Of a DNA stretch of 52,964 nucleotides, positions 25,861-48,383 are shown piece after piece. Source of the DNA: Sarea resinae (lineage: Eukaryota). Position 1 is the stretch's first letter; the number at the start of each line of letters is the position of its first letter. Both the position numbers and the translations under genes were made by a program. The DNA is taken from NCBI GenBank assembly GCA_026026165.1, contig JAPEUD010000032.1, positions 186,001 through 238,964 on the forward strand, written 5' to 3'. Below the pieces are notes generated by a model. That model ran no database searches, had not been told where the DNA came from, and saw only the letters and a list, made by a program, of their open reading frames with translations.

Positions 25861-26533
25861 GTTTAGCCAGCTAAAGGGTCATTGCTACTGATGAGCTGAC
25901 GAGGATACTAGTCTAGGTCATGAAACATAAGTGAGAGGTCTAGCAAGGTGCGCTACCTTCTGGTAAGGTGAATAGATGCTGAACCATACAGAGGCTTCGT
26001 TCCAGTGCCTTCTGATAAGGCTCGCAGTCAGCACTCTGATTTCTCATCTTAGAGCCTCTGCATTATCTCCCGCCCAGACCGGTGACTTCTTACCACTCCA
26101 ACTTTGCCTCTTATCAATTCCTCCGCCTCAGGTCCCTCATTACCACGCAGCACTTCCTTTTCTTCGTACCGCCTCTTCCTCCCATTGCTACTCTCACCTT
26201 ATTCATCTCCGCAGTCTTACTTCAACCAAGGCCTCGGACTCTTCTTCGACCTGCCAAGAACAACTCATTGACTTCGGCCCGGCTCCTGCATTTTGATCGC
26301 CTTCTGGCCTTTTCCGGTGTTCGGTTGAAGACATGCATGAAGGCTACAGCCCACTTGGCTCGATTGTCTCTTCATCAGGTGTTTAATATCGAATGACACC
26401 TCACCTCACTCTGCGTAACATCACTTGCCCAGACTTAATCAAGGCCAGACCTCTCGCAGACTGAGTCTTCAATTTGAACAGCCATAACTGGCCGTTGTCG
26501 TTGTCAAGTAAGGCTAATTATTTCTCGTTGCAG

Positions 26534-28515
26534 GCTGGAGAGCCAATGCCGCTGTAGTGGTCCGCGAGCAGAATTCAATACGCCCACGGTACCTAGCCTC
26601 TCGAAATTTGGCACACGGAAGATTCAGGCCGCCGGTGATAGACCTGGAGGAGGGAGAAGTAATTCCTGAAAGCAACTATATTTCGGACGACAACACTTCT
26701 ACCAGGCGGTGGGAGAACGAAGTCAACCGAAGCGACAGCCAACCAGCCTTGCCGTTGCGGAACGGGCCTCTCCCTGAGGGATTCAAAGCTTTAGACTGTT
26801 TCTTCTCGGATGGACTCCAACTTGATGACACAAAAGTTGTTGAAATTGACAATGGAGATTTCCTGAGGATTATTCATATTCTGCAGAATCAATTGACAAC
26901 CGAGGTGTTTTTACAAGGCAGGATTTTTCGCCGTGCTGACGCTAAGGGGTTAAGGGGCCTGGATCTGAGGTTGAATGAGGTTGTACAGATTGCCGAAGTG
27001 GAACTTGATGATGGTAGAGCTGAGGACGATCAGAGCATCGAAGGAATCCCGCTTTCAAAAGTCTTGAGGCTACGACAATTGATTCTCACGAATCAACCTT
27101 ACCCGTCGTTTAGTGTGGCAGAGCAGCGATATCAGTACAGAAACGCCACGCACGCGGCCGCGGAGGGTCCACTCGTCTGTCGCTGGAAGTCCACTACGTA
27201 CTTTAAGAATAGAAAATTGCGAGAAAAGCGGAAGGTCGACGAAGAATCCTTACAAGTTCTTACTGAGGAACAATCATCCAAGCATTACGGTGTTGATGAC
27301 GCGACTCTCCGTGAAATTTGGCGCGGCGTGACTATAAGAGGAGGAGCTTGCGACGGCATCTCGCTTGAAGAAAAGCGATTCAATAAGGAGGAAAAGAGAG
27401 CAATAAGAAATTTATCAACTCTGCATAGCTCTGGTAGGTCACATCAACCACATCAACAGAGGAGCACGTCGGCAGATTTGCTTGCTGAGATTGACTATCT
27501 GACATTTGCGCGTTCATTGAATCCAACGCTAAAGCGTCGGTACACTTTCGGGGATTGCTTCTGTGGAGTGGGCGGAACATCTCGGGGCGCAAAGGATGCT
27601 GGCTATCGCGTCCAGTGGGGGTTTGACTTTGATGCAACTGCGATCAATGCGTATTGCCAGAACTTCTACGAAACCACGGGTTACGGCATGGCAGCTCATG
27701 ATTTTATCACTATCAAGGATGATGTCAAGGTTGATGTTCTGCACCTTGGCCCACCATACCAGACACTCTCTCCAGCACACACTATAGAAGGCAAGAACGA
27801 CGATATGAACAGTGCCAGCTTCTTGGCTTCTCGGGAGGCCATCCAGAAAACAAAGCCACGAATTGTTACCTTCGAGAACACTTCTGGGCTACCCGAACGC
27901 CACACGCTTTGGATGGAATCTTTGATTGATTGCTTTACGTCGCTAGAGTTTAGTTTGCGGTGGAAAGTGCTTCATTTCGACCAGTATGGCTTGCCTCAGA
28001 ATAGGAAGAGACTAGTACTCTTTGCTTCGTGGTAAGTTCACATTGTGCTTATCTCTAAATTCCTTTTTTTAAACTGAAGGTCTATGCGCAGCCCAGGAGA
28101 GCCTTTACCAGACTTTCCCCTACCAACCCACACAAGCAACCCGGAGTTCCAACACGAGCGAGGTCTGGCCCCGTGCACAACCGTCAACCAAGCGATCGCA
28201 CCTATCCCCGCCAACTTCCCTAACCACGAGCCCGATGAAGCAATGCTCCGCACGGCGCCTAGCTACGACGGGGACAACCTCTTGCCCTACACTATCACGA
28301 CCAGCGGAGGCGGCAATATCCATCCTTCTGGCGCGCGGGACTTGACGCATCGGGAGCTGGCTTGCCTCCAGGGCTTTCCCCTCGAACACAAGTTCGGACT
28401 CGTGTGTGTCAAGAAGCAGATCGGGAATGCGGTGCCGCCCAGTGTGGCTAAAGTGCTTCTGGAACATATCAAGAAGGCGCTGAGGAAGGCTGATGGGATA
28501 GAACTTGATAGATAG
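26534..28515 (+). CDS. rid: RID/Masc1-family C5 DNA cytosine methyltransferase-like protein with catalytic Cys replaced by Tyr; 5' exon(s) unresolved
   Basis: Motif I 'FGDCFCGVGGTSRGA', motif IV 'VDVLHLGPPYQTLSPAHT' (family consensus recalled as LHLSPPCQ.FSPAHT), VI 'FENTSGL', VIII 'YGLPQNRKRL', IX 'RDLTHRELACLQGFP' and X 'KKQIGNAVPP'. Intron 28032-28091 restores 'ASCPGEPLP'. An acceptor (gctaat...ttgcag) ends at 26533, so an upstream exon is expected but was not located. Confidence 0.88.
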
Positions 28516-29731: not shown

Positions 29732-32297
29732 ATGAGATGACCTTAGAACTTAGAGTGAATACCTATCTAGTCTACTCGTCGAAATGTTGGAGTCTAATCA
29801 TGAAAAACACCATATTATTGAAGCATCGAGACTTTATGAACCACTAGGAATCACGCGTTCATTACTGTTAGTAGTCCATCAGTCTAACTTTCTAGATAGT
29901 CCAGATATTCCACACGGTCCGATTCATTCAGTTTATTGATCCAGTCTAACGGTCATAGAAATACTTTGACTATTTAGATCGCCAAGCTTTTTCAATTTCT
30001 ACGTAGCTGTGAATGCTTTTTGGACCATCAAGAGCATCGGTCCTTGCAAGCTACACTAATGGCACTAGCACACCGAGAAATTCGACTACACGAGAGCTTG
30101 AAGTATTGAGTGGTGCCTTTCATCGAGGTGGCAATTGAGGCCATTGAAGCAATTAACGATAACATTCGGATGCACGTGGCCAGACGCCAACACATTGCCA
30201 AGGTGGATATAAGGAGAAAATATTCCTTGGCTACCAAGGCAGACGCACAAGTACAACCTCTCTTCTCAACTACCTGAGTAAGAGTCGGGTCCGAGCATCT
30301 CCACCAAGGGTAGACATATCCGAGGAATGGCTTGCTTACACCTGCAATGTGATGATCGGCGAAGACGGCATTCTTCGAAGGGGCGACCTGCTCTGTTCGA
30401 AGCTGGGTAGCTCTAGGGCACTGGTGCTAGGCCCCTTCGTGTGGAGATCGCATTGGAGCTACGCGATGCTGCCGCTGTCTATCGGAGTGGCTTTCAAAGC
30501 ATTGCCACGGCTGGTTAGGACGGATACCTGTTTATTGCCCTAAGCTATCTATCACGAGCTTGGGATGAAGGGGACGTAGAGGCAGGATGCGATGTGACTG
30601 CAGAGCTACAAGACTACCTTGACGCAGCCTATGGGGCAAGGGCCCACAGAGGGGCGATGATCGCCCTAGGAAGGGGTCGAAATAGCTAAAGCGAAAGGGT
30701 GCAAGATTAGAGAAGTGCAAGTGTACGCCCAAATACAACGAGCTCGAGTTCCCACACATTGTGGAACAGCTATCAAGGAGGCCGACTGCTTGAGTCTCTG
30801 GAGGAGACTATCAGTGCCAATGGACCATTATTAGATCACTCTGTCACTGCCATACCCGCGCCATAGAACGGATGGAGAGTTGGGAGGAGCTGTCCGAGGA
30901 AAACCTGTTCTATGTCGGAGGAGAAATCACCACGCAGTATGCCTTTGATGGAACCTTTACCGATCTTGTGTCGGACGAGTGCGCAGGGAGGGTAATCGTC
31001 TATTCTTTCCAGAGCGGTGAAGAAATTGACCTGCCTGATTCCTTATGATCATGTTATCTTGCAAAGAGAATCGCAGCACTGAAAACAGAATCATAATACG
31101 CCGACAATTACTGTAAGGGGCTCTAGGAGGCTGTGCAGGAGCAGAGATGCTCCGAGGATACATATGCCTCTGTACTAATTACGCTTGAAAAGCATTCGCT
31201 GTCGCACGTACGTATAAGGAATAGGGTTTAGCTCTTACATGATCGCTTGACCAGTCGGATAAATGTTGGAATGCAAAGTGTGGGCCGAACAGAATGTTGT
31301 CCTTTAGAGGGTGTTCTTTAAATTCTTGTCGTCCGAATCTACTGCTTAACAATCATTCAAAACTCATCCCTCTTTAACATCCTCAGACAATTTACGTTAA
31401 ACCACAATCAAATCAATAGCATATAGTTAAAGGATATGAATCCCAAATAGCTGCTGATTATAAACAAGAGAAGGAGATGAACACGTATAAGATACAAATT
31501 ATGGTGAATGTCCTAACTAAAAGGATAAAATGGCTACATCCGCATCTCTGCCTTGAGAAGCCGCGACAACACCCGCCATCCCTTACTAAGGGCAGCCTTC
31601 ACCTCTTAATCAGTCAAAGAAGCGGTGATGCGGCCCTACATAGAGATCGGTAAACCAAGTCCTTTTGATGCTAGGTCTGGAGCAAAGGCAATGGGTCGCT
31701 CACGGCATCTACTATAAGACAACGCACGCGGAATTGTCATTTTCATTCTGTCGCGGAAAGCTGGTATACAGTATCTTCATGTAGAAGTACTTCTGGACAC
31801 TAGTCGACGGTGGTGAGAGGTTCGTCAGGATGCTTGAATTTTTATTCAAAGCTCTGTGAAAATTATAGCCTTATCGAGGGTTTATATAGTATAGTAGTAA
31901 TTAAGAAAATAATACCAAATGTTTGCAAAAGAAGAAAAGGAAGTCAATTACATAACAAAGTCGAAGGCCTCTCTTAAGAGCGTCTTACCCTTCAAACTTT
32001 ACTCACTCAACCATAGGGAGGCAGACTTCACGACGTTACGACGTCTTCGGAGCGTTGGGCATTCGCAGTCGCTAGATTGAACTATTGCTATTTTAATGGT
32101 TACCTAAGCTTGAATAAAGTTGTATTGGCCCTTTCGGTCCCTGGATCACCCGGAACCGAACCATGGCTGAGGAAAAGGTAAGGCTGAGGATAAGGCTGAG
32201 CGAGAGAGTGGGGAATGTCAACGCAATACCCCGCGGCTACGGCCTCGGCAGTACCCCACCACAGTCACGCATATTTGCGCTGCCTTCGAATTCAAAG

Positions 32298-33146
32298 ATG
32301 GCTCTTGTCAAAACCTATCTCCTCGCCCCAAACTTCAATTTTCGACCGGATGGACCCATCGCATTGGGGAACATCATCGCGAACCCCTTCAGACCACAGC
32401 GTATACTCACCGCCCCTGGTCCAAGCGCACCCCGGCCAGAGATCGAAAGCATCACCGAGTACGACTACCAAATCAGCCGAGGTAGCGGTCGCGATGTCCA
32501 ACTCGGCGTCTGGGCCACTTTCCTACAAACAGTCGGCGGGAACGTGGGACTGAAGAACAGCCACGATCTCCTCACCGAGTTCACCATGGACAGTATGGAA
32601 ACGCGCTATCTCAAACACGAACCCAGCGAGCAAGAAATCTCCGAGCGGGTCAGAGCCCCGCGCGTGCGAAACGTGATCACTTCTGGTACCTTTCGCTCCC
32701 AACCGGTCTACATGATTACGGGCGTGAAGATAGCAAAGGGGTTGAGGACGTCAAAGGAGCGGTCCTCGAACCGCGGCGGCGATGTGGGAGCTACGGTTCC
32801 TGTTTCGGCCGAGGTATCCGTGGGAGCGGGGATTGATCTATCCACTCGGAAATCAGAGAGGGATGCTTTTCGCGCTGGAGACGACGTCGTATTTGCGTAT
32901 CAGCTCATGAAGATCACGGAAAAGGGGTGGAGAGAGAAGAATCTGGTGGTCGATGATTATTATCCAAAGGCTGCGTATCTCAGTGAAGATTTCGAGGAGG
33001 AAAAGGATGAAGATGAGGTCATGGTGGCCTGTCCGCTTACCGTAGCCGATCTCCGCGAGATTGATGGGGAAGAGGTGGCCGTGCGGGGACTCGAATCGCA
33101 AGATGCTGACGGAGAGTGCTTGTGCATTGCTCCTGAAGATGCGTAA
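32298..33146 (+). CDS. Fungal gasdermin (HET-Q1/RCD-1-like pore-forming protein), 282 aa
   Basis: Motifs 'TYLLAPNFNFRPDGPIALGNIIANP..P', 'PVYMITGVKIAKG', 'DVVFAYQL..I' and 'YYPKAAYL', followed by an acidic C-terminal tail. Size and the adjacent S8 protease match the family. An upstream in-frame ATG at 32163 is an alternative start. Confidence 0.85.
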   Translation: MALVKTYLLAPNFNFRPDGPIALGNIIANPFRPQRILTAPGPSAPRPEIESITEYDYQISRGSGRDVQLGVWATFLQTVGGNVGLKNSHDLLTEFTMDSMETRYLKHEPSEQEISERVRAPRVRNVITSGTFRSQPVYMITGVKIAKGLRTSKERSSNRGGDVGATVPVSAEVSVGAGIDLSTRKSERDAFRAGDDVVFAYQLMKITEKGWREKNLVVDDYYPKAAYLSEDFEEEKDEDEVMVACPLTVADLREIDGEEVAVRGLESQDADGECLCIAPEDA

Positions 33147-33280
33147 GTCAAGCTATAATAGAAGATGAGATCACTGTGGTAGAGGCGGATAGAACAGAAG
33201 ACCCTGGGCAGCATCGAATTGAAGCCAAGATTGATATGAGATAGGATATATCTGCTATGTAGATTTCATCTCTTGCATAT

Positions 33281-36079
33281 CTACATACTGCTCAATGCTG
33301 CCTGTAAGATCCCCCAACGAGCCGAATCGTCTTCTCTAAAGTACTTCCACGGCGCAAGATAATAGCACCCAGGGTCACCTGTTGGTGTCGCCAAAGCCTT
33401 GAATATTGCACGCATGCCGCGTCGCGTCCGTAATTTCTCCCTCGCCAAGCGATATCCATGCTGGTCAGATCTCCAATCTAGGTCTCGTAGAATCATAGCC
33501 GCTATCCCTGCCGCGATTGGTGTTGCCACAGAAGTGCCTGACTTGCAAACCTCATCTTCGGAACTGCGTAATCCAGCAGACGGCACATCCTTTCCAAGGG
33601 TACCGAAAACAACGCCTTCATCTAGGTTTCGTGGGGGGTTGAAATCCGCAAAGACACCAGCACTATTGGTGCCGCGTATAGAGATGACAGAATCATGAAA
33701 GGCGGGAAACATCTCCTTCTCGTTTGCTCCATAGTTTGCCGCCGCGGCGAAAAAGAGGATAGCATCGTGTCTTTCATAAACCGCCCATCGTATAGCTTGG
33801 CTGATCGATGGCACTTCCATCGGAAAACCAAACGATAGTGAAATTATATCCACTTTCCATTCCTTAACCGCCCATTCGATAGCCTTCAACGGCCGTTAGT
33901 CCCTGCACACCCGGGGAATATGATTACTCACATCTGCTATTCTATCGGCGGCACCATGAAGACCTGCGGTGTCTTTTGCGACCCGCGCAACATATATATC
34001 TGCGGTAGGGGCTGTCTTCATGACAAGTGATACGACGTGTGTGCCGTGCCCATTGCAATCCTCTGGAGTTGGAGAATCGTCAACCCAGTCCTTCCATTCC
34101 TTTAAACGATTACTACGGCTCGGCGGATGGAAAAAGACAGCCTCGTCGTCGTAGCCGGTATCCAAGATAGCGACTCTAATAGGAGGCTGGCAGCTCTTCT
34201 GGGAACGGGCCAGACTAGCGTTGATTTTCGCAACATTTCGCAACCACTCGGCCGCTTTCTTGCTGTTGCATTCGTCAGCCAGAAACCACATAAAACTTCA
34301 GTAAATACCTTTCAAGGTTCACAAGTCTTTGATTCTGTGAGGAAAGATCAATAATCGACTGTGCTCGAGCCTGGGTATTGGCAGAGTCCTTTTCCATTTC
34401 CATCGGCCCAATTTTGGTAAGCTCATTCGACCATCCCGTCCCTGTGAGCAATTCTTCTAGTGGGTATACGACAGAACGATATAAAATTATCCTCCTCTCT
34501 TCTAAGCCATTCTGGTACTCCTCCTTCGACTGGCCGGGCAGAGAATCAGCGGAAGAAAAAACGTCTCGGTCCAAACAGGCTTTGACTGCTGTCCTATACC
34601 TTGAGTAATCAAAATTAGGCCATGGATTCTCTTCATCTGAGATTTTGCTGGCCATTGTCCAATCGCTATTGATGGTCCATTGCGGCGACTGGCGGTCTAT
34701 TTTTAGAGGATGTCCCAGGCCGATTTCAATGAGCATAATCCCTAATGCCAGAACTCTTGGATAGCGATGGATGATACCGTATGTGTGGCTACTTTCAGGA
34801 GCCTCTGAGCCTGCTTCGTCGAATCGTACGCAAAAGTAGGGTTTGTTTGCGTAAAGGGCGCTATCCTCGTCCAATCCAGGCACAGGCTCCTGCATAAAGT
34901 GGATGTTTTCGCCTGTCCACTTCGTTTTCATCCAATCAGAATCATAATACTGCCAGACTGATCTTGCCAAGGTGTACGCAAGAGCGACCTTCATTTTCGC
35001 TGTCAGATGGCGCGTCTCCAAGGCCGTAGTGAGCGAAACGCTTGGAGTATCCAAAATATTTTCTATTGGCTTGCAGGCCTCAAGTATCGTCAAGGTCTCG
35101 CCTTGAACTTTCATGCGGACTGTCGAACCAAGTCTGCCACTAATGAGACGGCAAAACTGGCCAGACCTTACCACTTCGCAGCCTTTTAAAGCGGAGCATG
35201 ACGGTCTCTGTTTATCGCTGAATCGAGCGGGAACGATGAGCTGTACGTCTTGCCATTGCACGACACGAGAGTTGGATGGCGGGGCAGGCGATGCAGAGAA
35301 TATCAAGTCGAATTGGACGGTGCCAATATATGGTGGATCCTGGCTTGCTCTCAAGCGCAACCTGGCCAGATGATGTTTAGTAGGAGCTCCCGAGGTCCCA
35401 CAGGTGCACGTCTGGTGATTTTGTAGGACAGTATAAGAGAGGTTGTTTATGTGATCAGGATAATCAAATGGTAATTCCACCGGCTTCTTTGTTGACGTCC
35501 ACGGTCCATCTGGGGTGCGTTTAAGCGTTCGCGACGCTTTCTGCTTTGAGAAATTTTGGATGAGGTCGATGAGTTGGTTTACCCGCGATGAGTGTTCCGA
35601 AGCAAAGGCTTCCAATCCACGTCGCACCGTCGATTCGGCTTCTCTGAACGAGGACGTCTCTCTGACTCCGGCAAGGGTGCGTAGCGCACGATACTGATCA
35701 TATCTATCATTCACTGGTCGTATTGCCCACTACAGAAGTCAGTCGAAGGGAATAAGAAAAAGCGAGGTGGGCAGATCCAAGCGAACGTTAGATCTAGGGA
35801 ATCTCTGGAACCGAATCTCAGCAGACGTACCGTGCAAACCATCTCGAGCTTTTTCAAAAGCTTTGGCATTCGACGTCGAAAGACTTCCTCCTGGTCGGGA
35901 GAGGTTGGACTGGCTAGTGTTTCATTCAAGCAGCACAGCTGAGCACCGAGGGCGGCGTAGAAACTGTTAACTTTCTCGACTCCGAGTCGCATTGCAATAT
36001 CGATGATCCTCGGAAACGCAACCTGCGCGAATTCCAATAGGTCCAACGAGTCCGCGTCTGAGTCCGAGTCCGAGTCCAT
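33281..36079 (-). CDS. Subtilisin-like S8 serine protease (HET-Q2-like) with a long N-terminal DUF7580-like region, ~867 aa, no signal peptide
   Basis: Exons 36079-35831, 35729-34309, 34262-33932 and 33883-33281 sum to 2604 nt in frame. The catalytic triad motifs are intact: 'VAILDTG', 'GHGTHV' and 'SGTSVATPIAAG', with oxyanion 'AAAANYG'. The N-terminal part has 'KVALAYTLARSVWQYYDSDW...W....IHF' and 'HRYPRVLALGIMLIEI'. The acidic N-terminus (MDSDSDSD) is not secretory. Confidence 0.9.
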
Positions 36080-36330
36080 TGCGATTCTCTAAAACCAACA
36101 TCACGGCAGTCGTTTGATGGCCAACCGTAACTTGTTCGTATCATACAATGGCTTTGCGAAGAGCGGGGTGGAAGTTGAGTGGAGGCTCTTCGGTTCGACA
36201 ATGCCGATCTTTCAGCCCCGTCAGCCCCACGCGCCGATCAAGCGGGGTGCCAGAGCTGACCGTTTTCACACTTTGGTCTGTGGAGTATGATCGATAATAA
36301 GAGCGCGCTTCATTGCTATGCTCGCGCAAG
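36080..36330. promoter_or_regulatory. Putative bidirectional promoter between the protease and NLR-like genes
   Basis: Only 251 bp separate the divergent ATGs (36079 on -, 36331 on +). No specific elements were identified. Confidence 0.5.
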
Positions 36331-39300
36331 ATGCCACGACCTCCTTTGATCTCCGATACAGTTTCGGCTTGTCGCGAGAGTTTCCACGAGTGCCTGACCG
36401 CCCCCAGTCTCTTCGACCGCGAATGGGCAGAGAATCGGCTTGCCGATCTCAACCTCTGGGCGGCCGGCCTAGGGGTTTTTGCCAGAAAAGATGCCTCTCT
36501 TGATCAACGATTGGCTCTGAAACCCGGGATCCGAGATGTTGTGATTAATCTCTTGTACATCTTGAAAGCATTCGTCGATCAATGCAGACAAAGCGGTGAG
36601 AAAGCGTACTTCACACAGCCGTTAGTCCAGCGTTTGACAGAACATCTTAGGATCCGAAGCCATAGAAAACCTTTCAATCGAAGACTCTGATCTACGAGGG
36701 AGAACGCCTTCCATCACTCTTTCACCTGGGCCACCCACACAACGATCCTTCTCGCCGTGGTCCGATGAATCAAGCTCTGATTCGACTACCGAACGTGAAT
36801 CTTCTTCTCCACCATCGGCTCTTGCCGAAGCTGTCAAAGGCACCGAAACCATCTTGGATCAGCTTGCCAGATTAGCAGTTGCCATTCGCCAATCTGGTGC
36901 CCATGCTCGCCTGCAAAAGGCGGACAAGACTTACAATCCTGATCACCACACAACCCTTCGTGATCATCTTACTTCTATCATACTTTCTCGGTCTTTTCGA
37001 TGGGGGACTACGGAGTTTGTTGCCAAATTCGAGGAGCTGAGCGAAATCCAGAAACGTCTTGTTGATGCCAATCTGAAACGCCGAAATCGATTCATATACG
37101 CACAGAAACACGCAAGGAAGCTTGCAGTAGCTCCGCCGGTACCGGTCCAAGCGATCGAAAAGCCAAAGCCCAAGGACCTTGGATTGCCCAGCAAGGCACA
37201 GGAGCCAAAGGAAACAATACCAACAAGGCCTCCAAATGCAGACCGAACGGTCCAGAAACCCCGATTCCTCACCCCAAATATGGCGGCGATGACCAACACC
37301 ACTGCGTCTGTTGTTGAAGGCTCTATCGCTGTGCCGCGAGCGACGGCACCTTCGCAGCCGGCAAGAACCGCGATAACTTCAACGGGCTCTAATATCGCCT
37401 ACCCTCATCCTCCACGGATAAAGCAAGGCCTGAACACTTTCAAGTGCCCATGCTGTTGCCAGATTCTCCCTGCCATGTTCGCTCAGAGTAGCCGATGGAA
37501 GTAAGTGCTCCCATCTTGATTTGAGTCAAGCACTTATTTCGAAACAGAAAGCACCTTGCAGGAGATATCTCCCCGTACACCTGCATCCTACCCAACTGTG
37601 CAAACCCGGAAGTTGTTTATGTCACCCGCGAGTCTTGGACCAAACACATGAGCAATGAGCACAGAACTTCTCGATCTTGGAAGTGTCTAGCGTGTAGTGA
37701 CGCTGTGTACTTTGACGACGAGGATCAATTTGTGGCTCATACGAAAGCGGAACACCGGGATACCATTTCAGATGAGCAGATCCTCTTTCTGACATCTGTA
37801 TCCTCGCAAACGACTTCTCTCGAAGTCAAATCCTGTCCACTTTGCAGCTGGGGAGATGAACAAGTTGTTAATACGGGCTTTCTACTCGACCATGTTGCTG
37901 AACATGTGCACTCCTTTTCTCTCCGATCCCTGCCCTGGGCACCCAAGGAGGAAAGTGAAGACAAACAGAATATCGAAAAATCTGTCAGAAAGGTAAGGGC
38001 GTGGTTTTCTAAATGGCCGACTTCAGCAGATGGAGACGAACATCGGCCAGTACACACGAAACAAAAACACCCGGAGGACGTTGACGATTATTTTGAAGGG
38101 AGCGATTACTTTGCCGAAAGCTCGGGGCTCTCAAGCCGTGGGAAGTCAACGATCTCTTCAGAGGAGCGGGATCTCACAGGATTTCCTGGAGAAGGATCGT
38201 TGGATTTTGAAGAGGAAGGATATTCACCGGAAAAGGAAACAAATAAACCTGACCACGAAAATACCAAGTATTCCTTTGAAGTAGCGCTTCAAATGGATAC
38301 CCATAGGTCATTATCAAGCGGATGGAACGTTTCCGAGCGGCAGAATGCGATCTATAATGAAACCCTTTGGAGACTGAACGAGACAGAAGGGTCGTGGTTT
38401 CTTTCCCATCCTATGTTTAAACGTTGGAAGGAGGATAGATTTTTTCTATGGCTCTATAGTGATGCTGGATGTGGCACATTAGCTTCCGTCATTATCGAGA
38501 ACTTGCTACAGAGTCGCGTAGCAGATTTGACTGGGTCTATCGCGGTCACCTTTTTCTACTGCAATCCTGAGAAAAACGACTTTCTTTGGGTCGAGGATAT
38601 GGTTTTCTCCCTGATCACCCAGCTCGCGATGCAATGCGAAGTGGTCCCTACGGCCCTCAGGCTTCTGTTTCAATCTTGCAGAGACAAAGATCGAGCGCCT
38701 ACAGACGAGGAAACAATGGACACTTTTAGGCAGATGGTCGATGAGCGCGATGCAACAACGTTTGTCATTCTTGATGGACTAGAAGAGTACAAGGAAAGAG
38801 CTGCACTCTTGAAAGCCATGGAGAAATATTGGCAGAACGGATTGATCCATGTACTGGTAACAAGTACGCATTCCGTGCAACTTAATATGGATGATCACAT
38901 TTGGGGCGAGCTCGAAATCAGAGAAGATGATCAAAACGAAAACCTCCGATTCTATATACGCAGGGTATTAGAATCTGATGTGCGATTGAAAGGTTGGACA
39001 ACTTCGGAGATTCGAGAACAGATTGAGAACAAACTTATCTATCAATCGAACGGAGTGTAAGACTATTTCCGTACCTCCGCTTTGATAAGCATTAATGAAA
39101 TACTAGATACCCGTGGATTTCCCGTCAGCTAAAGCTTCTTGGAGAGACGCATGACATTGAGGTAATATATCAGACGGTGACAGCTCCCTTGACAGTAAGC
39201 CAAATATACGGGCAAATTCTGCTTGAAATTCCTGAACCAAAAATCGATCTTGCACGATCATACTTCGAATGGCTCCTCCTATCTGCACGACCACTGGCAG

Positions 39301-41297
39301 TCAACGAACTTCTTGCTGGAACCGATCCAGGAACGTTATCCCAGGATGGCAGCGCTCGGTACTACAAACAAACTCGAGAAGAAGTTCTAGCCATATGTCC
39401 GAGCCTTATTAGCATATACTCTGGGTTGCGCTTGGGCCGAAGAGATTTAGAAAGTGTCGAATTCGTCAAGACACCAGTGATAAACTCGGACAGCTTATCT
39501 CATGGCGATATAGAGCAGAAGGTTCCGCATTCCGAAAGCACGTCTAAAAGGCTCGGCGGACCTATATTACAGCCTACGTTGAAGGAATTCCTGACCCAAG
39601 AATCGTTCCTAGTTCCTAATTTCCACTTAATTGAAATCGCTGCACATGAGCGCATAGTACGAAAATGTCTCGAGTACCTGTTACAGATTGGCCGGTCTAA
39701 CGGATGGGATTCCCATACCTTGAGGCTATATCCCCTCACAGGGTATGCAGCACAATACTGGGCCTTTCACGCTCAGAGAATGCCGATTTACAGCGACGTG
39801 AATGAGCTGATCATGAAACTATTCTCTAATCAACCGGCCTTTTTGACATGGCTACGGCTTTTCGGCCCAGATAACCCCAGCCGATACCCCGATGAGGAAG
39901 ACAGCAAAATCGATGCTGCAACTCCGTTGTATTATGCGTCGTTGATCGGTCTACTTGAGCCGGTCCGCCTTTTGCTCGAGCAAGGTGCAGATTCGAATGC
40001 GATTGGGGGGGAATGCAATACCGCACTTGGTGCAGCTGCTCATAACGGTCACCATGAGATAGTTAAGCTGCTGCTAGAGTCCGGCGCTGAAGTTGATATC
40101 CGAGGAAACTCTGGTACCGCCTTGTATATGGCTGCGTGCGCGGGGCATGATAAAGTGGTTTCCTTACTCTTGATGCATGGTGCTGACCTCAATGCCTGCA
40201 AGGGGGATCAAGGCACTGCTCTACGAGGAGCAGCGAAACATGGCCATGAGACCACCGTGCGACTCCTGTTGGACGCGGGCGCGGAGGTGAATAATCAAGA
40301 CGAAAGTACCGCTTTGCACGCTGCGGCATCCAGTGGCCATGAGACAATTTGCCGGCTGTTGCTCGAAGCAGGTGCTGAGGTCAATTGTCGAACGGAAAAA
40401 CATGGTACCGCATTACAAGCGGCAGCATGGGAGGGCCACGAATCGATTGTGCGGGTACTTCTAGATTATGGAGCTCTAAGCAACGCCCCACCTGAAGAGT
40501 CCGACACCGCATTGCCAGCCGCGGCTCTCACTGGCTGTGAATCGATTGTGCGCCTACTTTTGGAGAACGGAGCTGAAGTGAACGCTCTCAAGGGAATCGC
40601 ATTGACGGCTGCGGCGAGCGCAGGTCATGAATCAATAGTGCGCCTACTTTTGGATCGCGGAGCTGATGTTGATGCCCGGATAGTCGGAACCATGACCGCA
40701 TTGCAGGCTGCGTCTGTCAATGGCTATGAATCAATCGTGCGCCTACTTTTGGAGAAAGGAGCTGATGTGAACGCTTTTATGGGAACCGCATTAATAGCTG
40801 CGGCATCTAATGACCAATTGGTACTGCAACTACTCAGAGATCTAGGGGCTGATCCCGACACAGTACGCTACTTGATAGAAAGAGGAGGTCTTAAGACAGA
40901 TATAGATGCCGACACGGCGTTACAGATGGCAGCTAAGGAGGGCCACGATGGGATAGTCCAGCAACTCCTTGATCACGGAGCCGACATCAACGCTCCAGGA
41001 AGTCATGGGACTGCCTTGTACTTGGCGTCGAGCAGGGGATATACGTCAACGGTGCGACTGCTATTAGAACAAGGGGCTGATGTTAATAGCTCTGGAAACG
41101 AGCACGGAACTGCCTTGTACGCTGCAGCTTCTAACGGCCACGAGAGCATTCTTAAGATCTTACTAGAACACGGAGCTACTGTAGACAACTCCGGGTTCAA
41201 ACTTGAAACTGCACTACACATTGCGGTTTCTAAAGGCTATGAAGAAATAGTTCAAATCCTACGAGATCGTAGGTCAAATACAAATACTATTTCTTAG
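36331..41297 (+). CDS. NLR-like protein: helical N-terminal domain + C2H2-type Zn fingers + degenerate NACHT-like P-loop + winged helix + ~14 ankyrin repeats (~1604 aa)
   Basis: Exons 36331-36595, 36651-37500, 37548-39056 and 39107-41297 sum to 4815 nt in frame. Motifs: 'NRLADLNLWAAGLG...SLDQRL', 'FKCPCC', 'WKKHL..DI.PYTC...C', 'WTKHM..EH', 'C..C...F..H...EH', 'CPLC..DHVAEH'; NACHT-like 'GSWFL...FKRW..LWLYSDAGCGTLAS', 'FFYC', 'FVILDGLEE'; 'EWLLLSARPL..NEL'; 'YAAQYW..H'; ankyrins from about 39921. Confidence 0.88.
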
Positions 41298-41440
41298 TGT
41301 ACATTAGAGGGCTAAAGAAGGTAGGAAGAGGTTAGGTTAAGGTGAATTAGGAGGGTGCAGTAGGAGGATCGATAGATAGATAGGTACTAGCTAAGACTAT
41401 ATAGAAAGCAGTTGCCCTAAGAGGCATCGCGAGGAGAATG

Positions 41441-41562
41441 CCCCTAAGGGTATAAGTCTAAGCAGCAACAAGGATGCCTCTAAGGGCATAAGTCTAAGCA
41501 GTAACAAGGATGCCTCTAAAGGCATAAGTCTAAGCAGCGACAAGGATACCTCTAAGGGCATA
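41441..41562. repeat. 36-bp tandem repeat, about 3.4 copies (CCTCTAAGGGCATAAGTCTAAGCAGCAACAAGGATG)
   Basis: Units start at 41441, 41477 and 41513, with a partial unit at 41549. Differences between copies are C/T or G/A transitions. Confidence 0.85.
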
Positions 41563-42199
41563 ACACTAGGTAAGTAATTAAAACTGCTAAAGGCATAATT
41601 GATTTAAGGTCTAAAGTTATTGTCTCTAACAAACTATAAAGCCTAAAAAGAAGAAGGAAAGCAACAATATTTGTTTAATCTTAATATTTAGTTAACAAAG
41701 TACTAATTCACAAAACAGTTAGATACAACAATTATAAGAATAAAAAAAAGCCCCTTTAATTAAATTAAATTACAATAGAGATTAAATACTTAAGATCTAC
41801 CTGTTTAAATACTATCTAACTACTTGTATTAATACTTTATAATATCTTACTAGCTAGTACAAACAGTCTATAAGAAGCAAAAAGTATTATAATAATAGTA
41901 GCAATTATTATAGCAATAGTTAGTAGTAGTGTTAGTCTAACTATAGAGGTAAAAGATAGAAAGTAGGTTAGTAAGTTAGTAAGTAAAGTTAGGTAAGTAG
42001 GTAGGTAAGTAGGTAAGGCTTTATAGAGTAGTAGGTAACTTATTAGTAGAGTTATATAAGTGATTTAATTTGCGTTACCTCTATCTAGTAACTTGCTATA
42101 CTAATCTATCTCTACTAACTATATTATATATCTTTAGTGATTTACTATCACTTTCTTCTTAACTAATAAATTAGGAAAATTGTCTTAATATAGATTAGT

Positions 42200-45100
42200 A
42201 AATAATGTAAGGGCTACTACTAATAGAGGTGCTATATATAGCTTAGCGCAGTGTAGAGTAACTACCTAGTGTAGTTTAGCAACGTTTAGGTAAGCTAAGC
42301 AAGGTTATTAGTTATATAGATTAATAGAGGTGCTAGCTATTAGGGCTAGCGTTTAGTGCAATTACAAAGTTAGTGCCTACTAGCAATATCTATATCTATA
42401 GTATTAGTTCTGCATTGCTAGAGTAACGCTAGCACGCTGCAATACACTAACCTATTTAATTATACTATTCCTACCTACTCTACTATAGCTAGAAGTCTAA
42501 GAGGCAGTCTAATAATTCTAAACACTCTACTAATACAGTAATAGACTAAGTAAGATAGTAACAATAAATACATATAATACTATAAGGGCTCTTAATACTC
42601 TACTAGGTAAAAGAGCTAATAGAGATAATAGTAAGATAGTAGCAAGCTAGGTAGAAGGCAAGGTTAAAGAGCCTGTCTCTAACTAGATTACTAATTAATT
42701 ACTAGACTAAATATAGTAAGAGTGTGACGCTAAAGAGCAGCAGGCTTAATATTGTTGACTCTAAAGAGAGATAGCCTAGTTCTATATAGAACAGCAACTA
42801 CAAGCACTTATATAAGTATTACAGCTAGGACAAGGCCTTGCAGCTGCTACACTAGCACCTTACATCACTAACTAGACTAAAATCTAAGCTCTAGAGCTAT
42901 TTACAAGCAAGATAATTAAAGAGCATAATAAATTTATCTAATCCTATAAGATAGCGTTTTATCTAGGTGCTATTATAGATAAAAGTAATAATATAGCAAA
43001 GGTGCTATATGCTATGCAATACTTAAAAGACAAACTAGCGCTAGTATAGCACTAGGTTAAAGAATCTACTAGAAAAGACACCTATACCTAGGATAAATTT
43101 GTCTTATTCCTACTAGACTAAGTAGAAGATCTAGTAAATTAAGGTAGTTTAATATTACAGCTATACTATAACGCTACACAGGCGCTGCACTAGAGTATTA
43201 ATAGCTTTATAGCTTTCCTAGAACAGATTAAACTAGAAGTGCTAAGAGGATAAGATATCTCTAAAGAGCAGTGATACAACTTATTCTATACTAAGATCTA
43301 AAGTGAAATTTACTAGGAACTGCTCTAAACCCTACTAATACTACAAAAGTAGAGCGCTGCTATAGCGTTAGCAAATTAGGTAGAGGAACTCCTTTATATA
43401 AGCAATAAAAGGAATAAGAATAAGAACTCTAATCTATCTAAGCTAGACAATAAGTGATAGTATAGCAATAGCATAGAGAAAGAAAGGAGTTAGAATAAAT
43501 AAGGAACTAAATAAAAGTTTAATCCTACTAAACATAAGGGTAAAAGCCTACCTCTATAAGAATAAAAAACTTCTGCTTAGCCTAAGGATAATAAAGGCGA
43601 TAAGTCTATATAGTAGCCTTAACAGCTCTCTAATAAAGAGTATTACTATAGGTAAGAAGGTAACCTTTGCTTAAACTATAGCTAAAAAGGCTACTTTACT
43701 TCTACTTATAAGAATAAACATAATAATAGGCCTATACTAGCTTTATAACTAGAGCTAGAACCCTACACTATTTACTATCTTAGTGTAAGAGAATCTTAAA
43801 GAGCTCTAACCTTAAAATTAGAGACATCGCTAACTATTTACACCTCTAGTAGTACAGCAGATAGCACTACTTTAATTGACTTAGAAGTAGAAGCTTCTCT
43901 AGTTTTACAATTATAGATTAAAGAGTATAGAATCTCTAAGGCTAAGCTTAGGCAGCTACTTAGCGCAGTGATAATAAACAGCTTATAAGTAGCAATCTAT
44001 AGCTAATACTAATTAGAAATACAAGTTGCTAATAGTAATAGTATAAAGAAGATAGTGTAGTACTAGTTCTTTACCTATAACTTTAATAGTCCTCTATTCT
44101 TACTTAGGTATCTATAGCTGTCCTTATACTACTACAATATACATTAGTTAGAAGGTAAATTTAGCTATGTTAAGCCTATAGATAAGCCTAGGCTTAGTAA
44201 AGAACATTAGAAGAAACGTTAGCTAAACTGCTAAGAGATTATAGTAGTGCCTAAACCTATAGAGGTAGTAAAGCTTTACTAGGTTAGCGCTAGTAATAAG
44301 ATACCTAAATAGTATAAGGAATTTGCTTCTATCTTTAGTAAAGAGAAAGCTAGCTAACTTCCTAAGTATAGTCTAGCTAACTATACTATTAAGTTAGAAG
44401 GTAAAGACTCTCTCTATAGTCCTATATATCTATTATCCTAGAAAGAATTAGGTATTCTACAGACCTACCTAGATAACAGCTTAGTAAAGAGGTAGATCAC
44501 TCTCTCTATAAGCCCTATTAGTGCGCTAATCTTATTTATGCCTAAGAAAGATAGTAGTTTACAACTTTGCATTAACTACTAAGTGTTAAACAAGGTCACT
44601 ATTAAGAATCAATACCTATTACCCCTTATTTCTAAGCTTATAGACTAAATAAGCAGTGCTAAAGTTTTTTTAAAACTAGACCTAAGAGATACCTACTACT
44701 ATATAAGGATCTACAAAGGCGATAAGTATAAGACAATGTTCTGCACTTATTACAGCTAGTTTAAATATAAGGTTATACTCTTTAGATTAGCTAATACACC
44801 TGCTACATTTTAGAGCTATATTAATTATACATTATAAGGCCTAGTTAATGTCTGCTGCATTATCTATCTAGATAACATTCTTATATACTCTAATTCACTT
44901 AATAAGTATAAAAAGCATGTACACTAGGTCTTTAAACAGCTATTAACCTATAGCCTATATATAAAGCCTTTAAAATGTGTCTTTAGAGTGTAGGAAGTTA
45001 ATTTCTTAGGATTTATTATTAGGACTAATAGTATTACAATAGAGAAGAGCTAGGTAGACACTATAAAAGAGTGGCTAGCCTTTAAGACCTATTATAACCT

Positions 45101-48100
45101 CTAAGTCTTCCTAGGATTCGCGAATTTCTACTAATAGTTTATAGAGAAATACTTTGTTAAAGCGCTGCTATTAACTAGCCTGCTTGCTAGAAGTAAGAAC
45201 AGAAAGAAAAGCAGTCTATTCTACTTCTCTAAAGAAGCTAAGGAAGTATTTAAAGCCTTAAAAGAAGCTTTTACAACAGCGCCTATACTGCGCTACTACA
45301 ATCTAAAGAGGCAGATATAAGTAGAAACAGATGCTTCTAGATTTACTGTTACAGCAATTTTATCCTAGCTAGTTAAGGATAAACAAGGTGTAATAACAGT
45401 GTTAAAGTAGCACCTAGTTGCATACTAGTCTAGAAAGCTTACTAATACTAAATTAAGATATAAAGTGTATAACTTAGAGTTGCTAGCTATTATAATAGCT
45501 TTTAAGCAATAGCGCTACTACTTAGAAAGGGCTAACTACTCTATTAAGGTCTTAACTAACTATATAAATCTACACTACTTTATAACAATAAAAGAGTTAA
45601 CTTGTCGCTAGGCTAGATAGGCTAAACAGCTAGTAGCGTATGATTTTAAACTTATATATAGAGTAAAGAAAGCTAATCTAGCTAATAGGCTGTTGTAGCG
45701 CCCTAATTACAAGGTAAAGACATAGAGTCTAGAAGTAATACTTCTTACTCTATAGCAGAAGCTGTAGAACCTGTGTATATTAAAGAGAGATAGCACTACA
45801 CTAGTAATCTAAAACCTTCTTACTAGAACAGATAATAAGTATCTAGGTAAAATAGGCGCTAATACACTAAAGGATAATATATATCTATAAGAGATTAAAA
45901 ACCCCTCTAAGTTAGAGGATAACACTCTACCTACTGTTAATAAGCGATAGTAGTGCGCTAGGATAACACCTAGTCTAAGTGTAAAGAATAATATATATCT
46001 ATAAAGGATTAAAACCCTTTCTAGGTTATAGGATAAAACCTAGCCTAATATTAAAGAGCGATAGAGAGGCACTAGAGTAACACCTAGGCCTAGCCTAAAT
46101 AACAATACTAATAAGCTAGTATTAGGAGATAAGTTTAAACACCTCTATATAAGATAAGTAGTGTATAAAGCAACTACTAATAAAAGAGTGTATAAGCTGC
46201 TAACAGACTAGCTGCTTAATGTTATTCTTAGGACTTAGTAGGAAGATTATTTCGCTAAGGAAAAGATTAAAAGCATTCTTATTAAAGAGGTTACAGGCTA
46301 AGAAAAGTGGAAAATAGACTCTATAGGCCTGCTACACCTAGAAAGCAAAGTATATATACTGTGTAATACAGCTATTAGGTTAGAAATTATAAGTATAAAC
46401 TATAATAACTTGTTTAGTAGCTACTTTAGCGCTAAAAGAACAACAGAGGTAATCTAGTGTAAATACTAGTAGACTAATTTAGCTAAGGATATTAAAGAAT
46501 ATATTAATAAGTGCAATATATATTAAAGGGTCTAGGTGCCTAGGTATTGCCTATATAGCGAGCTACAGTTATTACCTATACTCTACTAGTTGTTTAAAGA
46601 AATCACTATAGATTTTGTAACAGGCCTACTACTAAGCAATATAAGAGATTATAAGGCCTATAATATAATAATAGTAGTAGTTAACTGCTATATAAAGATA
46701 GCGAAATATATTCTATACTAGATAAATCTAAATGCCGCTATACTTGCAGATATATTTATTAACGTTATAATAACAATATATAGTAATCTAAAGCGTATTG
46801 TATTAGATAGAGGCAGTGTATTTACAAGTAAGTTTTAGTTAGCAATATACTATTAAATGCAAATTAAGAACTAGCTTAGCACTACCTTCTACTTGCAGAT
46901 AGATAGCTAGACTAAGAGGTAAAACTAGACATTAGAATACTACTTATAGTGCTATATAAGCAGCTGCTAGGATAACTAGGCTCTGCTATTACTTATAGCT
47001 AAGTATATATACAATAATAGTATATATTTATCTATAGGAATGTTACTCTTCTATACCCTATATAGCTATAACCTAGATCTACAACTTAATATCACAGATA
47101 ATACTATAGAGAGAGAGGTGCTAGCAGTAAACAAGCGCCTTAATATTCTCTAAAGAGTAAGATAAAGACTAGAAGAGGATCTTACTAAGGTATAGCAGTA
47201 CTAAGCTAAGTAGTACAATAAAAAACATAAGCTAATACAATATAAAAAGAGTAATAGAGTTATGCTGTTAGTATACAACCTTAGCACTATACACCTAAGT
47301 AAGAAGTTAGAGCACTACTATATAGGCCTATTTATAGTACTTAACTCTATAGGTAAGTAAGCCTACTAGTTATAGCTCTCTAAGGCTTATAGATCTATCT
47401 ACTCTATATTTTATATATTGCTACTTAAGCGCTACTATAGTAATAGCAATACCTTAGACTAGTACTTTAAGCTAGTTAATAGCTAGGTTAAGTAGATTGT
47501 TAAGAAAATCCTAGGCTATAGAGTACTTAAGAGAGAGCGACAATATCTAGTTAAGTAGAAAGGAGCTCTAGTAGATAACACTAGCTAGGAGCTAGTAAAG
47601 CACCTAGTAAACACTATAGACCTAGTATAGGATTATAAACAGCACTTACTCTCTAACTAGTATAGAGGCCTAGCAAATAAAGAATAGAATACTAGTATGC
47701 TATTAACTAAGCCTTATAGTTAACTAAAAAAGCGACTGCTTAGTAATAGCGCTATAGAGGCGATAGCTAAGAGGCTAAGAGGCTACCTAAAGAAGAATCT
47801 ACTACTCTATAGAGAACCTCTAGCTAGCCTAGAGATACTAGTAACAAAACGCCTATAAGGAAGGCTATAGAAGTATAGCCTAAAGCTATAGGTAATTGTA
47901 AGAAAGAGACCTTACAGCTATCTAAGAAAGGACACGCTGTTGTAGCACTAGTAAGGAGCTGCTATTAGAACTCTTTCTACCTCTTTTACCTATAAAGGTT
48001 TTTAAGTAGTTTTAGTAAGCTAGTAAAGAGGTAGGCCTGCGATGCTATAGCGTGCTAATAGTGTACTATCTCTATAAAAGGCTATTAGGCAATAGAGCGA

Positions 48101-48250
48101 TAAAGCTACACAGCTACAATACTATAGTTATAAGAGGAGATAAAGTTATAGAAAAGAAAAGTGAAATTAACCCCTAGCGCTATTCTAGCGCATAACCTAC
48201 ACAATCTAGTATATAAACAGAAATAAAAAGACTACTATTCTATTACCTAA
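42200..48250 (+). mobile_element. RIP-degenerated Ty3/Gypsy (chromovirus) LTR retrotransposon relic; boundaries approximate
   Basis: The block is extremely TpA-rich and full of stops, with de-RIP-able motifs in canonical order: Gag (about 42800-43100), Zn knuckle C-x2-C-x4-H-x4-C (43665-43709), protease LID(S)G (about 43872), RT YLD(D>N) (44865-44876), RNase H VETDAS (45321), integrase ITMDFVTGLP (46602) / VSDRG / TDGQTER, and chromodomain 'YLVKWKG..SWEP' (about 47493-47640). A possible 3' LTR starts at TGTAAG about 47897. No matching 5' LTR was recognised. Confidence 0.9.
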
Positions 48251-48383
48251 CTACTTTGTCCTACCTGACTCTAAGGGCTCTAATTAGCCTAACCGCATTG
48301 CAGCGGCTAAAGACACTGTCTTCTCGTCGATTTTCGCCGATCTTCGCCTCTTTAAGGCATCGAAGCGAGCCCTAAGCGAGAAT

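Follow-up and report, generated by a model that had tools for sequence, protein, structure and literature searches.

A recurrent third gene beside a gasdermin-subtilase gene pair of Sarea resinae: a candidate sensor module coupled to DUF7580-type proteases

A gasdermin-like gene, a gene for a HET-Q2-like subtilase (Peptidase_S8, hereafter S8) and a third gene that encodes a zinc-finger-containing N-terminal module, a NACHT-type domain and ankyrin repeats lie side by side in a stretch of the genome of the fungus Sarea resinae (assembly GCA_026026165.1, contig JAPEUD010000032.1, positions 186,001 to 238,964 of the forward strand); this stretch of 52,964 nucleotides is referred to as the window, and all coordinates are its own. 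The N-terminal module of the third gene is genetically coupled to proteases that carry the domain DUF7580 in their N-terminus, in split as well as in fused forms, and this coupling is strongly supported. It is very probable that the three genes are functionally linked, and the recurrence of the module beside such pairs recommends the third gene as a candidate for the switch that is missing upstream of gasdermin and protease. A feasible model, which is modestly favored here, is that of a single conserved cell-death unit made up of the three genes, in which a sensor bearing the module would switch the DUF7580+S8 protease in trans and the gasdermin would be cut. That the signal runs from sensor to protease and then to pore is a tentative proposal, about which doubt slightly prevails.

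An earlier sequence-only reading of the window had described a three-gene module of gasdermin, S8 protease and NOD-like receptor (NLR). All three genes are present at the positions and on the strands that it gave, and its gap sizes (134 bp from stop to stop and 251 bp from ATG to ATG) are exact by the coordinates:

32298..33146, + strand: gasdermin-like gene, 282 aa plus stop, identical to database protein P0001
33147..33280, no strand: intergenic region between the convergent stop codons of gasdermin and protease, 134 bp
33281..36079, - strand: HET-Q2-like protease gene, 867 aa, identical to P0067, four exons
33446..34177, - strand: Peptidase_S8 domain (PF00082) of the protease, from Pfam, interrupted by the intron 33884..33931
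34446..35453, - strand: DUF7580 domain (PF24476) of the protease, aa ~176-511, Pfam E 3e-31
36080..36330, no strand: intergenic region between the head-to-head ATGs of protease and third gene, 251 bp
36331..41297, + strand: third gene (module, NACHT-type NPHP3_N domain, ankyrin repeats), 1604 aa predicted, four exons
36331..36603, + strand: module segment N, aa 1-91, helical, from jackhmmer and the 26-sequence alignment A6
36806..37171, + strand: module segment MID, aa 141-262, helical, from jackhmmer and alignment A7
37391..37944, + strand: zinc-finger segment (ZNF) of the module, aa ~336-505, three C2H2-like fingers by pattern
38389..38865, + strand: NPHP3_N (NACHT-type) domain of the third gene, Pfam E 2.5e-22
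38458..38487, + strand: degenerate Walker A 'SDAGCGTLAS', aa 676-685, from pattern search and alignment
40032..41294, + strand: ankyrin array of the third gene, ~13 repeats, Pfam Ank and Ank_2 E 8e-120

The term module denotes the first ~500 aa of the third gene, namely the helical segment N, MID and the three C2H2-like fingers. Its distribution was followed in 80 loci, the best of 384 confirmed relatives out of at least 598 pattern matches, all of them metagenome contigs with flanks of up to 10 kb. According to jackhmmer searches of the six-frame open reading frames (ORFs) with N (aa 1-92), MID (141-262) and ZNF (336-505) as three separate segments, 35 of these loci contain all three, in order and on the same strand. 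Each hit lies within ~6 kb of the protease; neither the remaining sequence of the loci (736 kb in total) nor the remainder of the window gave any. A gasdermin ORF (profile A2) is present in 42 of the loci, and module, protease and gasdermin occur together in 22. When the spliced third-gene protein was used in tblastn, the loci were matched by its first ~560-600 residues and in some cases also by its ankyrin repeats; its NACHT part matched none of the 80 loci.

The presence of the module depends on the N-terminus of the protease, which was typed by Pfam on 145 ORFs upstream of the S8 domain. The module occurs in 32 of 53 DUF7580-type loci, and in 15 of the 17 that have at least 2 kb of sequence upstream and at least 3 kb downstream, 13 of which hold all three genes. 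The TPR-type S8 loci never contain it (0/6), though five of the six have a gasdermin, and among the loci with other or unknown N-termini it was found in three of 19 (L050, L052 and L059), which constitute one redundant group with a truncated S8 match. In L028, L051, L064, L075 and L080, tblastn matched the S8 part only, yet the module and DUF7580 are both present. Collapsing the loci at 85% or more nucleotide identity over at least 800 bp left 64 non-redundant groups, 25 of them with the module; as related loci share ancestry, the counts of groups do not represent fully independent events. With either flank adequate, the module is present in 19 of 22 DUF7580-type groups versus 1 of 14 others (Fisher p = 3.0e-6), and with both flanks adequate in 12 of 14 versus 1 of 5 (p = 0.017). 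Linkage of the module is thus specific to proteases with a DUF7580 N-terminus, and the idea that gasdermin-protease pairs are never linked to such a third gene, which the sequence-only reading had entertained as fatal to its proposal, is contradicted by these counts.

Given p = 3e-6 in this synteny test, the adjacency of the three genes is not a matter of chance. Neither are the loci copies of one mobile segment, because they fall into 64 groups at 85% and their proteases are 26-57% identical to that of the window. The order of the genes also varies: as in the window, the module gene is divergent from the protease gene in 30 loci, and in six it lies beyond the gasdermin gene, one locus (L008) showing both arrangements, so that the linkage of module and protease survives rearrangement. 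The tail-to-tail layout of gasdermin and protease is likewise found in the closest related loci (L001, L003, L004, L005 and L008). The 251-bp head-to-head region of the window is a putative shared promoter. No second NLR-like gene was found in the rest of the 52,964-nt window.

Several loci contain additional features. In L008, a second module gene (4184-6871, - strand) is divergent from a stand-alone DUF7580-like ORF (8285-9103, + strand), and this arrangement (4184-9103) lies upstream of the main trio of protease, gasdermin and module; a similar DUF7580-like ORF is located at 256-999 of L004. These stand-alone ORFs suggest that module and DUF7580 can be paired without need of an S8 domain or a gasdermin. 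In L037, two in-frame stops break the module (6673-8601, - strand) into the same-frame ORFs 8167-8601, 7759-8163 and 6673-7755, and no gasdermin was found in this 21-kb locus, which is possibly a decaying cluster. In L032 and L044, the module is followed ~2.7 kb further downstream by a PNP_UDP_1 ORF of the same strand (3126-4145 and 3118-4200, respectively, both - strand), and a local profile found no DUF7580 between module and PNP_UDP_1 ORF in either locus. The module protein P0092 and the protease P0080, which come from the same named genome, were considered and provided no extra evidence of synteny, the longest contigs of the two being of different length (200,475 and 1,040,404 bases).

C14 and W43 of segment N of the module are invariant in alignment A6, and the finger segment, the first finger of which is split by the intron 37501..37547, has invariant Cys, His and Trp residues in the 22-sequence alignment A3. 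A profile of A3 matched 8833 cluster representatives at E<=1e-3, 3989 at 1e-10 and 156 at 1e-30, and N, MID and ZNF follow one another in order in 65 of the 150 best representatives. Ten module proteins belong, by their source names, to Sordariomycetes, Leotiomycetes, Lecanoromycetes and Orbiliomycetes. The family zf-C2H2_AcuF (PF26082) was not reported in Pfam scans of the window pieces and of 53 full-length relatives; the name AcuF appeared solely as a 32% share in one structurally similar cluster of the ESM Atlas. A model of the stand-alone module protein P0092 (527 aa, 45-sequence alignment A4) reached a predicted local distance difference test (pLDDT) of 80.2 and a predicted template modeling score (pTM) of 0.76, with long helices at 10-210 (the N region forming a helical bundle), a disordered linker and fingers at ~300-470. 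Foldseek with this model found nothing in the PDB at E<=0.001. VIA-align over 48,161 chains placed the coiled-coil (CC) domain of potato Rx first (Z 11.7, root-mean-square deviation 2.5, 106 aligned residues), and its list also contains the N-terminal domain of Sw-5b (Z 10.9), the CC-R of NRG1.1 (9.4), MLKL (8.7) and the N-terminal domain of HET-S (7.5); these rows serve as a lead, for with helical bundles a Z below ~13 can reflect a mere common arrangement.

Behind the module, the proteins diverge. The architecture of the window (NPHP3_N and ankyrin repeats, ANK) is repeated in L042/L045, and L028 has NB-ARC, DUF7779 and TPR; a nucleotide-binding domain behind the module is limited to these loci and the window. 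Elsewhere the tail consists of TPR (L004, L008), WD40 (L005, L037, L062), ANK (L064, L052), HET (L058) or a ubiquitin-like domain (L054), and in the rest nothing is recognizable or the contig ends. Because the tail varies from locus to locus, the conserved partner of the protease is the N-terminal module and not the NLR as such. Thus, the sequence-only reading, in which the separate sensor was an NLR, holds for the module (19/22 groups) and has to be amended for the NACHT-ankyrin part, which is swapped between loci. The tails of L004, L005 and L008 are TPR, WD40 and TPR, although these three loci are at least 85% identical in nucleotide sequence across 800 bp or more, which suggests rapid swapping of the C-terminal repeat domain. 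A wider view was provided by a Pfam scan (E<=1e-6) of 53 of the 65 full-module representatives, the other 12 being left out for size: 33 have no Pfam family, five have WD40, two NPHP3_N with ANK, one ANK, three Pkinase (one of them also HET), one DUF7580, one PNP_UDP_1, two annexin, two PUF, and one each PI-PLC, WW and PH.

Some of these proteins unite in one polypeptide what is split in the window. The DUF7580 case is P0131 (1190 aa, Thelonectria olida by its source name), in which the module spans aa 16-548 and DUF7580 aa 925-1150 with no S8 domain; P0145, P0153 and P0182 are fusions of module and Pkinase. Dataset S2 of a survey of fungal gasdermins (Clave, 2022, PMC8851545) contains gasdermin-linked proteases annotated as C2H2-zf with Peptidase_S8, C2H2-zf>TPR with CHAT, and C2H2-zf>NACHT_N>TPR with CHAT, and the string 'c2h2' occurs in it 21 times. 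Those of its C2H2-zf entries that were compared, by eye only, have the N and finger motifs of the module, and two of its entries annotated as PKinase with Peptidase_S8 likewise have module motifs. Fusions of module and protease, with or without a kinase in between, are hence already on record in that dataset. Two DUF7580-type proteases, from Botrytis and Aspergillus niger, are also present there, their N-termini being unannotated (PMC8851545).

The protease of the window is, by its sequence, an intact HET-Q2-like S8 enzyme for which cleavage of the gasdermin is predicted. Its four exons on the - strand (36079..35831, 35729..34309, 34262..33932 and 33883..33281) are separated by introns of 101, 46 and 48 nt, all GT..AG, and the spliced 867-aa product agrees with P0067 letter for letter. 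The S8 motifs are AILDTGYD (D591), NGHGTHV (H629) and SGTSVATP (S785), together with N717; D591, H629 and S785 are invariant and N717 is nearly so in an alignment of 15 homologues (A1). No obvious signal peptide is visible by eye at the N-terminus. The conserved triad and the non-protease N-terminal extension of ~560 aa, which contains DUF7580, agree with the intact protease with a long N-terminal region that was expected from the sequence-only reading.

PF24476 is carried by all 16 proteins that a search for longer homologues of the protease returned, 15 of which also carry PF00082. In the ESM Atlas, clusters with DUF7580 also carry S8 (70 members), PNP_UDP_1 (105 members) or HeLo, and P0078 (901 aa) is a fusion of DUF7580 and PNP_UDP_1. 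In view of the fusions to PNP_UDP_1 or HeLo, DUF7580 resembles a regulatory domain in general use among the cell-death effectors of fungi. The domain is probably kinase-like: its structural likeness to protein kinases in the ESM Atlas is weak (TM 0.32-0.45), and a 2025 review mentions "predicted kinase-like domains" fused to gasdermin-linked proteases (PMC12881547). This reading relies on the weak Atlas rows and on the phrase of the review, since the DUF7580 profile A5 gave 0 matches at E<=10 among PDB sequences. The literature search found DUF7580 in no paper.

The 282-aa protein is a gasdermin as judged by sequence and predicted fold. Its enclosing ORF on the + strand spans 32163..33146 and the protein begins at 32298; M1 (32298) is nearly invariant in the 56-sequence alignment A2, which makes a start at the ATG further upstream (32163) improbable. 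The database search returned 66 homologues besides P0001. No Pfam family matched the 282-aa protein, and phmmer against PDB sequences found the Neurospora protein RCD-1-2 (8jyz_B, E 1.1e-7) and RCD-1-1 (8jyz_A, E 7.6e-6). An AlphaFold2 model built on the 56-sequence alignment (pLDDT 78.3, pTM 0.68) has the RCD-1 pore 8jyz_A as its top Foldseek match (E 2.5e-12, TM by target 0.68), followed by a bacterial gasdermin (8sl0, E 4.3e-9), that of Trichoplax (8jyw, E 3.3e-8) and the GSDMD pore (6vfe, E 1e-6), and the earlier assignment as a gasdermin is thereby borne out. The model comprises a beta-rich pore-forming core to ~aa 220, a low-confidence acidic linker at aa 231-248 and a C-terminal tail at aa 249-279. 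HET-Q1 loses a fragment of ~5 kDa, a size that the predicted tail of ~30 aa in the window gasdermin would fit (PMC12881547). In one gasdermin homologue from a Logan contig, P0020 (342 aa), two C2H2 fingers of the classical type (PF13894, PF00096) take the place of the C-terminus, perhaps because two genes were joined in the gene call. A relationship of these fingers to the module was rejected, since by eye they look classical and do not resemble it.

The third gene is composed of the exons 36331..36595, 36651..37500, 37548..39056 and 39107..41297 on the + strand, with introns of 55, 47 and 50 nt, all GT..AG. Introns 1 and 2 occupy the same protein positions in related loci, and the fingers and the NACHT domain lie within one uninterrupted ORF (37525..39060). 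A search for longer homologues with exon 3 gave five proteins that cover 26-49% of the query, none of them the window protein. The gene product has a nucleotide-binding domain (NPHP3_N), C-terminal repeats and a conserved N-terminal domain, the features by which an NLR is recognized. Accordingly, the NLR assignment of the sequence-only reading is upheld by the NACHT-type domain and the ankyrin repeats and falls short at the Walker A motif, where GK[S/T] has gone: the window sequence has a two-residue gap at the place where P0156 (GMPGAGKS), P0083 and L028 have GK[S/T] and P0127 has GKT. The P-loop of L042, read by eye and unaligned, is 'GSGKT'.

Contact between module and protease was addressed by complex prediction, in which the N, MID and finger pieces of the window were given as three chains together with protease residues 1-556 and alignments were unused. 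The interaction score ipSAE was 0.40 (0.40-0.42 in three runs) against 0.00 for the best of three controls, which is weak support from a job unlike those of the calibration. The runs agreed in at least 44% of contacts, the partner pLDDT was at least 71, and no interface was reported. In the calibration, the mark was reached in 51 of 78 cases by solved complexes and in 2 of 108 by mismatched pairs; scores up to 0.60 account for five of these 78 complexes and for each of the four mismatches that passed among 180. The structural check of the sensor module against the protease N-terminus that the sequence-only reading had envisaged separates the pair from its controls (0.40 vs 0.00) and leaves it in an error-prone range of scores and with no interface. 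A blastp search for a homotypic or amyloid-like motif that the first 640 aa of the third gene might share with the gasdermin or with the N-terminus of the protease gave a single 15-residue hit (E 1.6), and such a motif was discarded.

From gene linkage, domain fusions and the one weak complex prediction, we infer that the sensor may activate the protease in trans. According to this model, the gasdermin would be the pore-forming executioner, kept inactive by its short C-terminal tail, and the DUF7580+S8 protease would be its cognate HET-Q2-like activator. The module would constitute the signaling end of the sensor protein, the variable C-terminal part of which (NACHT-ankyrin here; WD40, TPR, ANK or NB-ARC-TPR elsewhere) would perceive a cue. 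Module and the kinase-like DUF7580 region may then engage in trans as a heterotypic coupling pair, which would release the S8 activity; the protease would cleave the linker of the gasdermin (~aa 225-248), and pores would be formed by the core thus set free. In other fungi, the same chain may operate in cis as a fusion of module, kinase and S8 or of module and S8. It is also tempting to speculate that a widespread, undescribed three-component system of pyroptosis-like death exists in fungi, in which sensors with a four-helix bundle, an AcuF-type zinc finger and interchangeable WD40, TPR, ANK or NOD-repeat receptors would signal in trans to the DUF7580 of a subtilase, and this enzyme would in turn cleave a gasdermin. 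The pair of module and DUF7580 would then be a coupling device of general use, serving PNP_UDP and HeLo effectors as well; this broader view is the more doubtful one, and is better regarded as possible than as expected.

A number of observations weigh against the proposed unit. The locus search used patterns of the protease alignment A1, one of which is a DUF7580 motif, so that the sample leans towards the DUF7580 class; domain calls on the loci were made on stop-to-stop ORFs, and flank adequacy was estimated from tblastn coordinates. Two of the 17 well-flanked DUF7580-type loci (L060 and L079) have no module. The finger family is large (the 3989 representatives at E<=1e-10 are counted as sequences alone), and in module proteins outside the window, enzymes (HET, PNP_UDP_1, PI-PLC, kinases) are as frequent as repeats. 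The tails with HET, PNP_UDP_1, PI-PLC, Pkinase, annexin and PUF, together with the 33 of 53 proteins that have none, imply that the module is not simply the head of a receptor. The complex score lies in a range in which errors outnumber correct predictions, except for pairings that were likely beforehand. Finally, the NACHT domain of the window does not conform to GxxxxGK[S/T] and its Walker A lysine is missing, which makes NLR behavior driven by nucleoside triphosphates (NTPs) doubtful for this copy; the third gene of the window may be decaying or may lack an NTP-driven switch.

Other roles for the third gene deserve consideration. The module protein may be a negative regulator or guard that binds DUF7580 and holds the protease off, the latter being freed when the module protein is lost, modified or sequestered, for instance by a pathogen factor to which the repeats bind. 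The linkage, the fusions and the weak complex signal are shared by this explanation and the activator model, tight repression is needed where protease and gasdermin are co-resident, and the tail-less module proteins (33/53) suit an inhibitor as well as an activator. However, the data do not tell activation from repression, and proteases with long N-termini are already thought to be self-inhibited, Q2L-6 being activated by truncation (PMC8851545); a guard is accordingly considered unlikely. Somewhat less probable again is that the module protein is a second effector, with an N-terminal bundle of the HeLo, CC or MLKL kind, or a second S8 substrate parallel to the gasdermin. The likeness of P0092 to Rx CC, Sw-5b, NRG1.1 CC-R, MLKL and HET-S in VIA-align points in this direction, as do the frequent fusion of DUF7580 to HeLo, a layout like that of MLKL, and the module proteins with HET, PNP_UDP_1 and PI-PLC; all Z values, however, stay below the helical-bundle bar of ~13, Foldseek found nothing at its threshold, and the domain was modeled within P0092 only.

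Two further explanations start from the fingers and from the surroundings of the gene. A cluster-specific C2H2 transcription factor for protease and gasdermin would account for the three conserved C2H2-like fingers and for the short divergent intergenic region shared with the protease in 30 loci, and the sole Foldseek rows for the module are DNA-binding zinc-finger arrays, at a non-significant E of 0.4-2. Yet fusions to WD40, ANK, TPR, NACHT, NB-ARC, kinase, HET, S8 or CHAT are untypical of such a factor, no Pfam DNA-binding C2H2 family scored over its cut-off on the window fingers, and the linkage follows the DUF7580 domain and not the gasdermin locus as such, which makes this explanation very improbable. 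Fungal NLR genes are often located in variable, repeat-rich regions, and the third gene could be an unrelated NLR that stands beside the pair by accident; the AT-rich block directly downstream, with its signature like that of repeat-induced point mutation (RIP), and the degenerate Walker A would be in keeping with such an origin. But the occurrence of the module near DUF7580-type proteases in 19 of 22 groups versus 1 of 14 (p = 3e-6), in two gene orders and in fused forms, leaves an accidental neighbor hardly credible.

The surroundings of the three genes are heterogeneous. The block directly 3' of the third gene (41600-48300, 6.7 kb) has 31.5% G+C, a TpA/ApT ratio of 2.04 and a (CpA+TpG)/(ApC+GpT) ratio of 0.47, the cluster itself having 0.64 and 1.27; it is probably a degraded repeat. 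Just past the stop of the third gene, a short tandem repeat occupies 41395-41603, one frame of which reads as repeated KGISLSSNKDAS units. On the other side of the cluster are a non-reducing polyketide synthase gene (5278-12167, - strand; SAT, KS, AT, PS-DH, 2x ACP and thioesterase, with introns splitting the ORFs), a very large gene with DUF6606, DUF3638 and DUF3645 (15070-25066, + strand; a single ORF of 2006 aa) and a gene for a C-5 cytosine DNA methylase (26518-28512, + strand; two ORFs), which is worth noting beside a RIP-like block. An OrsD-like ORF lies at 48.8 kb.

The gasdermin-protease pair is an ordinary member of the published het-Q1/het-Q2-like kind. For 80% of 1,884 fungal het-Q1 homologues, a gene for an S8 or CHAT protease has been found at a distance of no more than 10 kb, and proteolytic activation has been proposed as the rule (Clave, 2022, PMC8851545); the protease gene of the window, at 134 bp from its het-Q1 homologue, lies well inside this distance. 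The linked proteases have long extra termini in 93% of cases, one such pair being functional, and 88 clusters contain two protease genes (PMC8851545). The window presents the same short gasdermin beside a co-resident multidomain S8 protease with a long N-terminal extension. Only 493 of 1,499 long termini were annotated by Pfam in 2022, and the DUF7580 N-terminus of the window belongs to the 67% that were not (PMC8851545).

By contrast, a separate third gene that recurs in this way, with the module as its defining part and DUF7580 as its associate, has no precedent in the literature searched. The available parts of PMC8851545, PMC12881547 and PMC9815663 do not mention a conserved, separate, non-protease third gene; the term 'zinc finger' is absent from the full text of the fungal-gasdermin papers searched, and literature searches gave nothing closer. 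The HET-Q2-like proteases with C2H2-zf or PKinase in Dataset S2, which resemble the module by eye, form one polypeptide, whereas in the window and the 35 loci the module and the protease are separate neighboring genes and the module has its own variable tail (PMC8851545). Similarly, fungal NLRs of the S8/NACHT/WD40 type couple nucleotide binding and repeats to a gasdermin-linked protease as the window does, but the parts that are fused there are split here (PMC8851545; PMC12881547).

The amyloid-motif pairs and trios (NWD2/HET-S, PNT1/HELLP and the PP cluster) show the same clustering of sensor and effector, the N-terminus of the sensor doing the signaling (PMC12881547; PMC9815663). In the window, however, there is no shared short motif, and the module is a folded domain of ~500 aa, for which the P0092 model (pTM 0.76) speaks. 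MLKL and the HeLo-kinase-like proteins of fungi combine a four-helix-bundle-like with a (pseudo)kinase-like part; in the window, the corresponding parts would belong to two proteins, with a protease as output, and the likeness of fold is below threshold. Bacterial gasdermins can be encoded in multi-gene operons with separate proteases and with NLR-like or ATPase upstream sensors. The window differs from these operons in kingdom, in protease partners and in domains, and only the window has the zinc-finger module. Partners of bacterial gasdermins can be NLR-related (PMC8851545).

Mammalian inflammasomes (NLRC4/NLRP, CARD/PYD, caspase-1 and GSDMD) are alike in that sensor, protease and gasdermin are separate proteins that act in the order proposed here, the system of the window being known from its genes alone. 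It differs in having no death-fold domains, a subtilase instead of a caspase, and a proposed coupling that is heterotypic; blastp found no similarity between the N-termini of third gene and protease. Fungal pathways have seemed simpler than mammalian ones, the NLR carrying the protease directly (PMC8851545), and the stimuli that activate fungal gasdermins have been called a major open question, the regulation of protease-bearing proteins being still to be uncovered (PMC12881547). A third gene that travels with the large DUF7580 class is a concrete candidate for the upstream step of protease control, and module and DUF7580 are a defined domain pair that can be tested for binding. If the model is true, fungi, like animals, can have a sensor and a protease that are two distinct proteins, which would revise the view of the simpler fungal pathway (PMC8851545), and the three genes would represent an inflammasome-like relay in which a heterotypic adaptor pair replaces the CARD-CARD contact.

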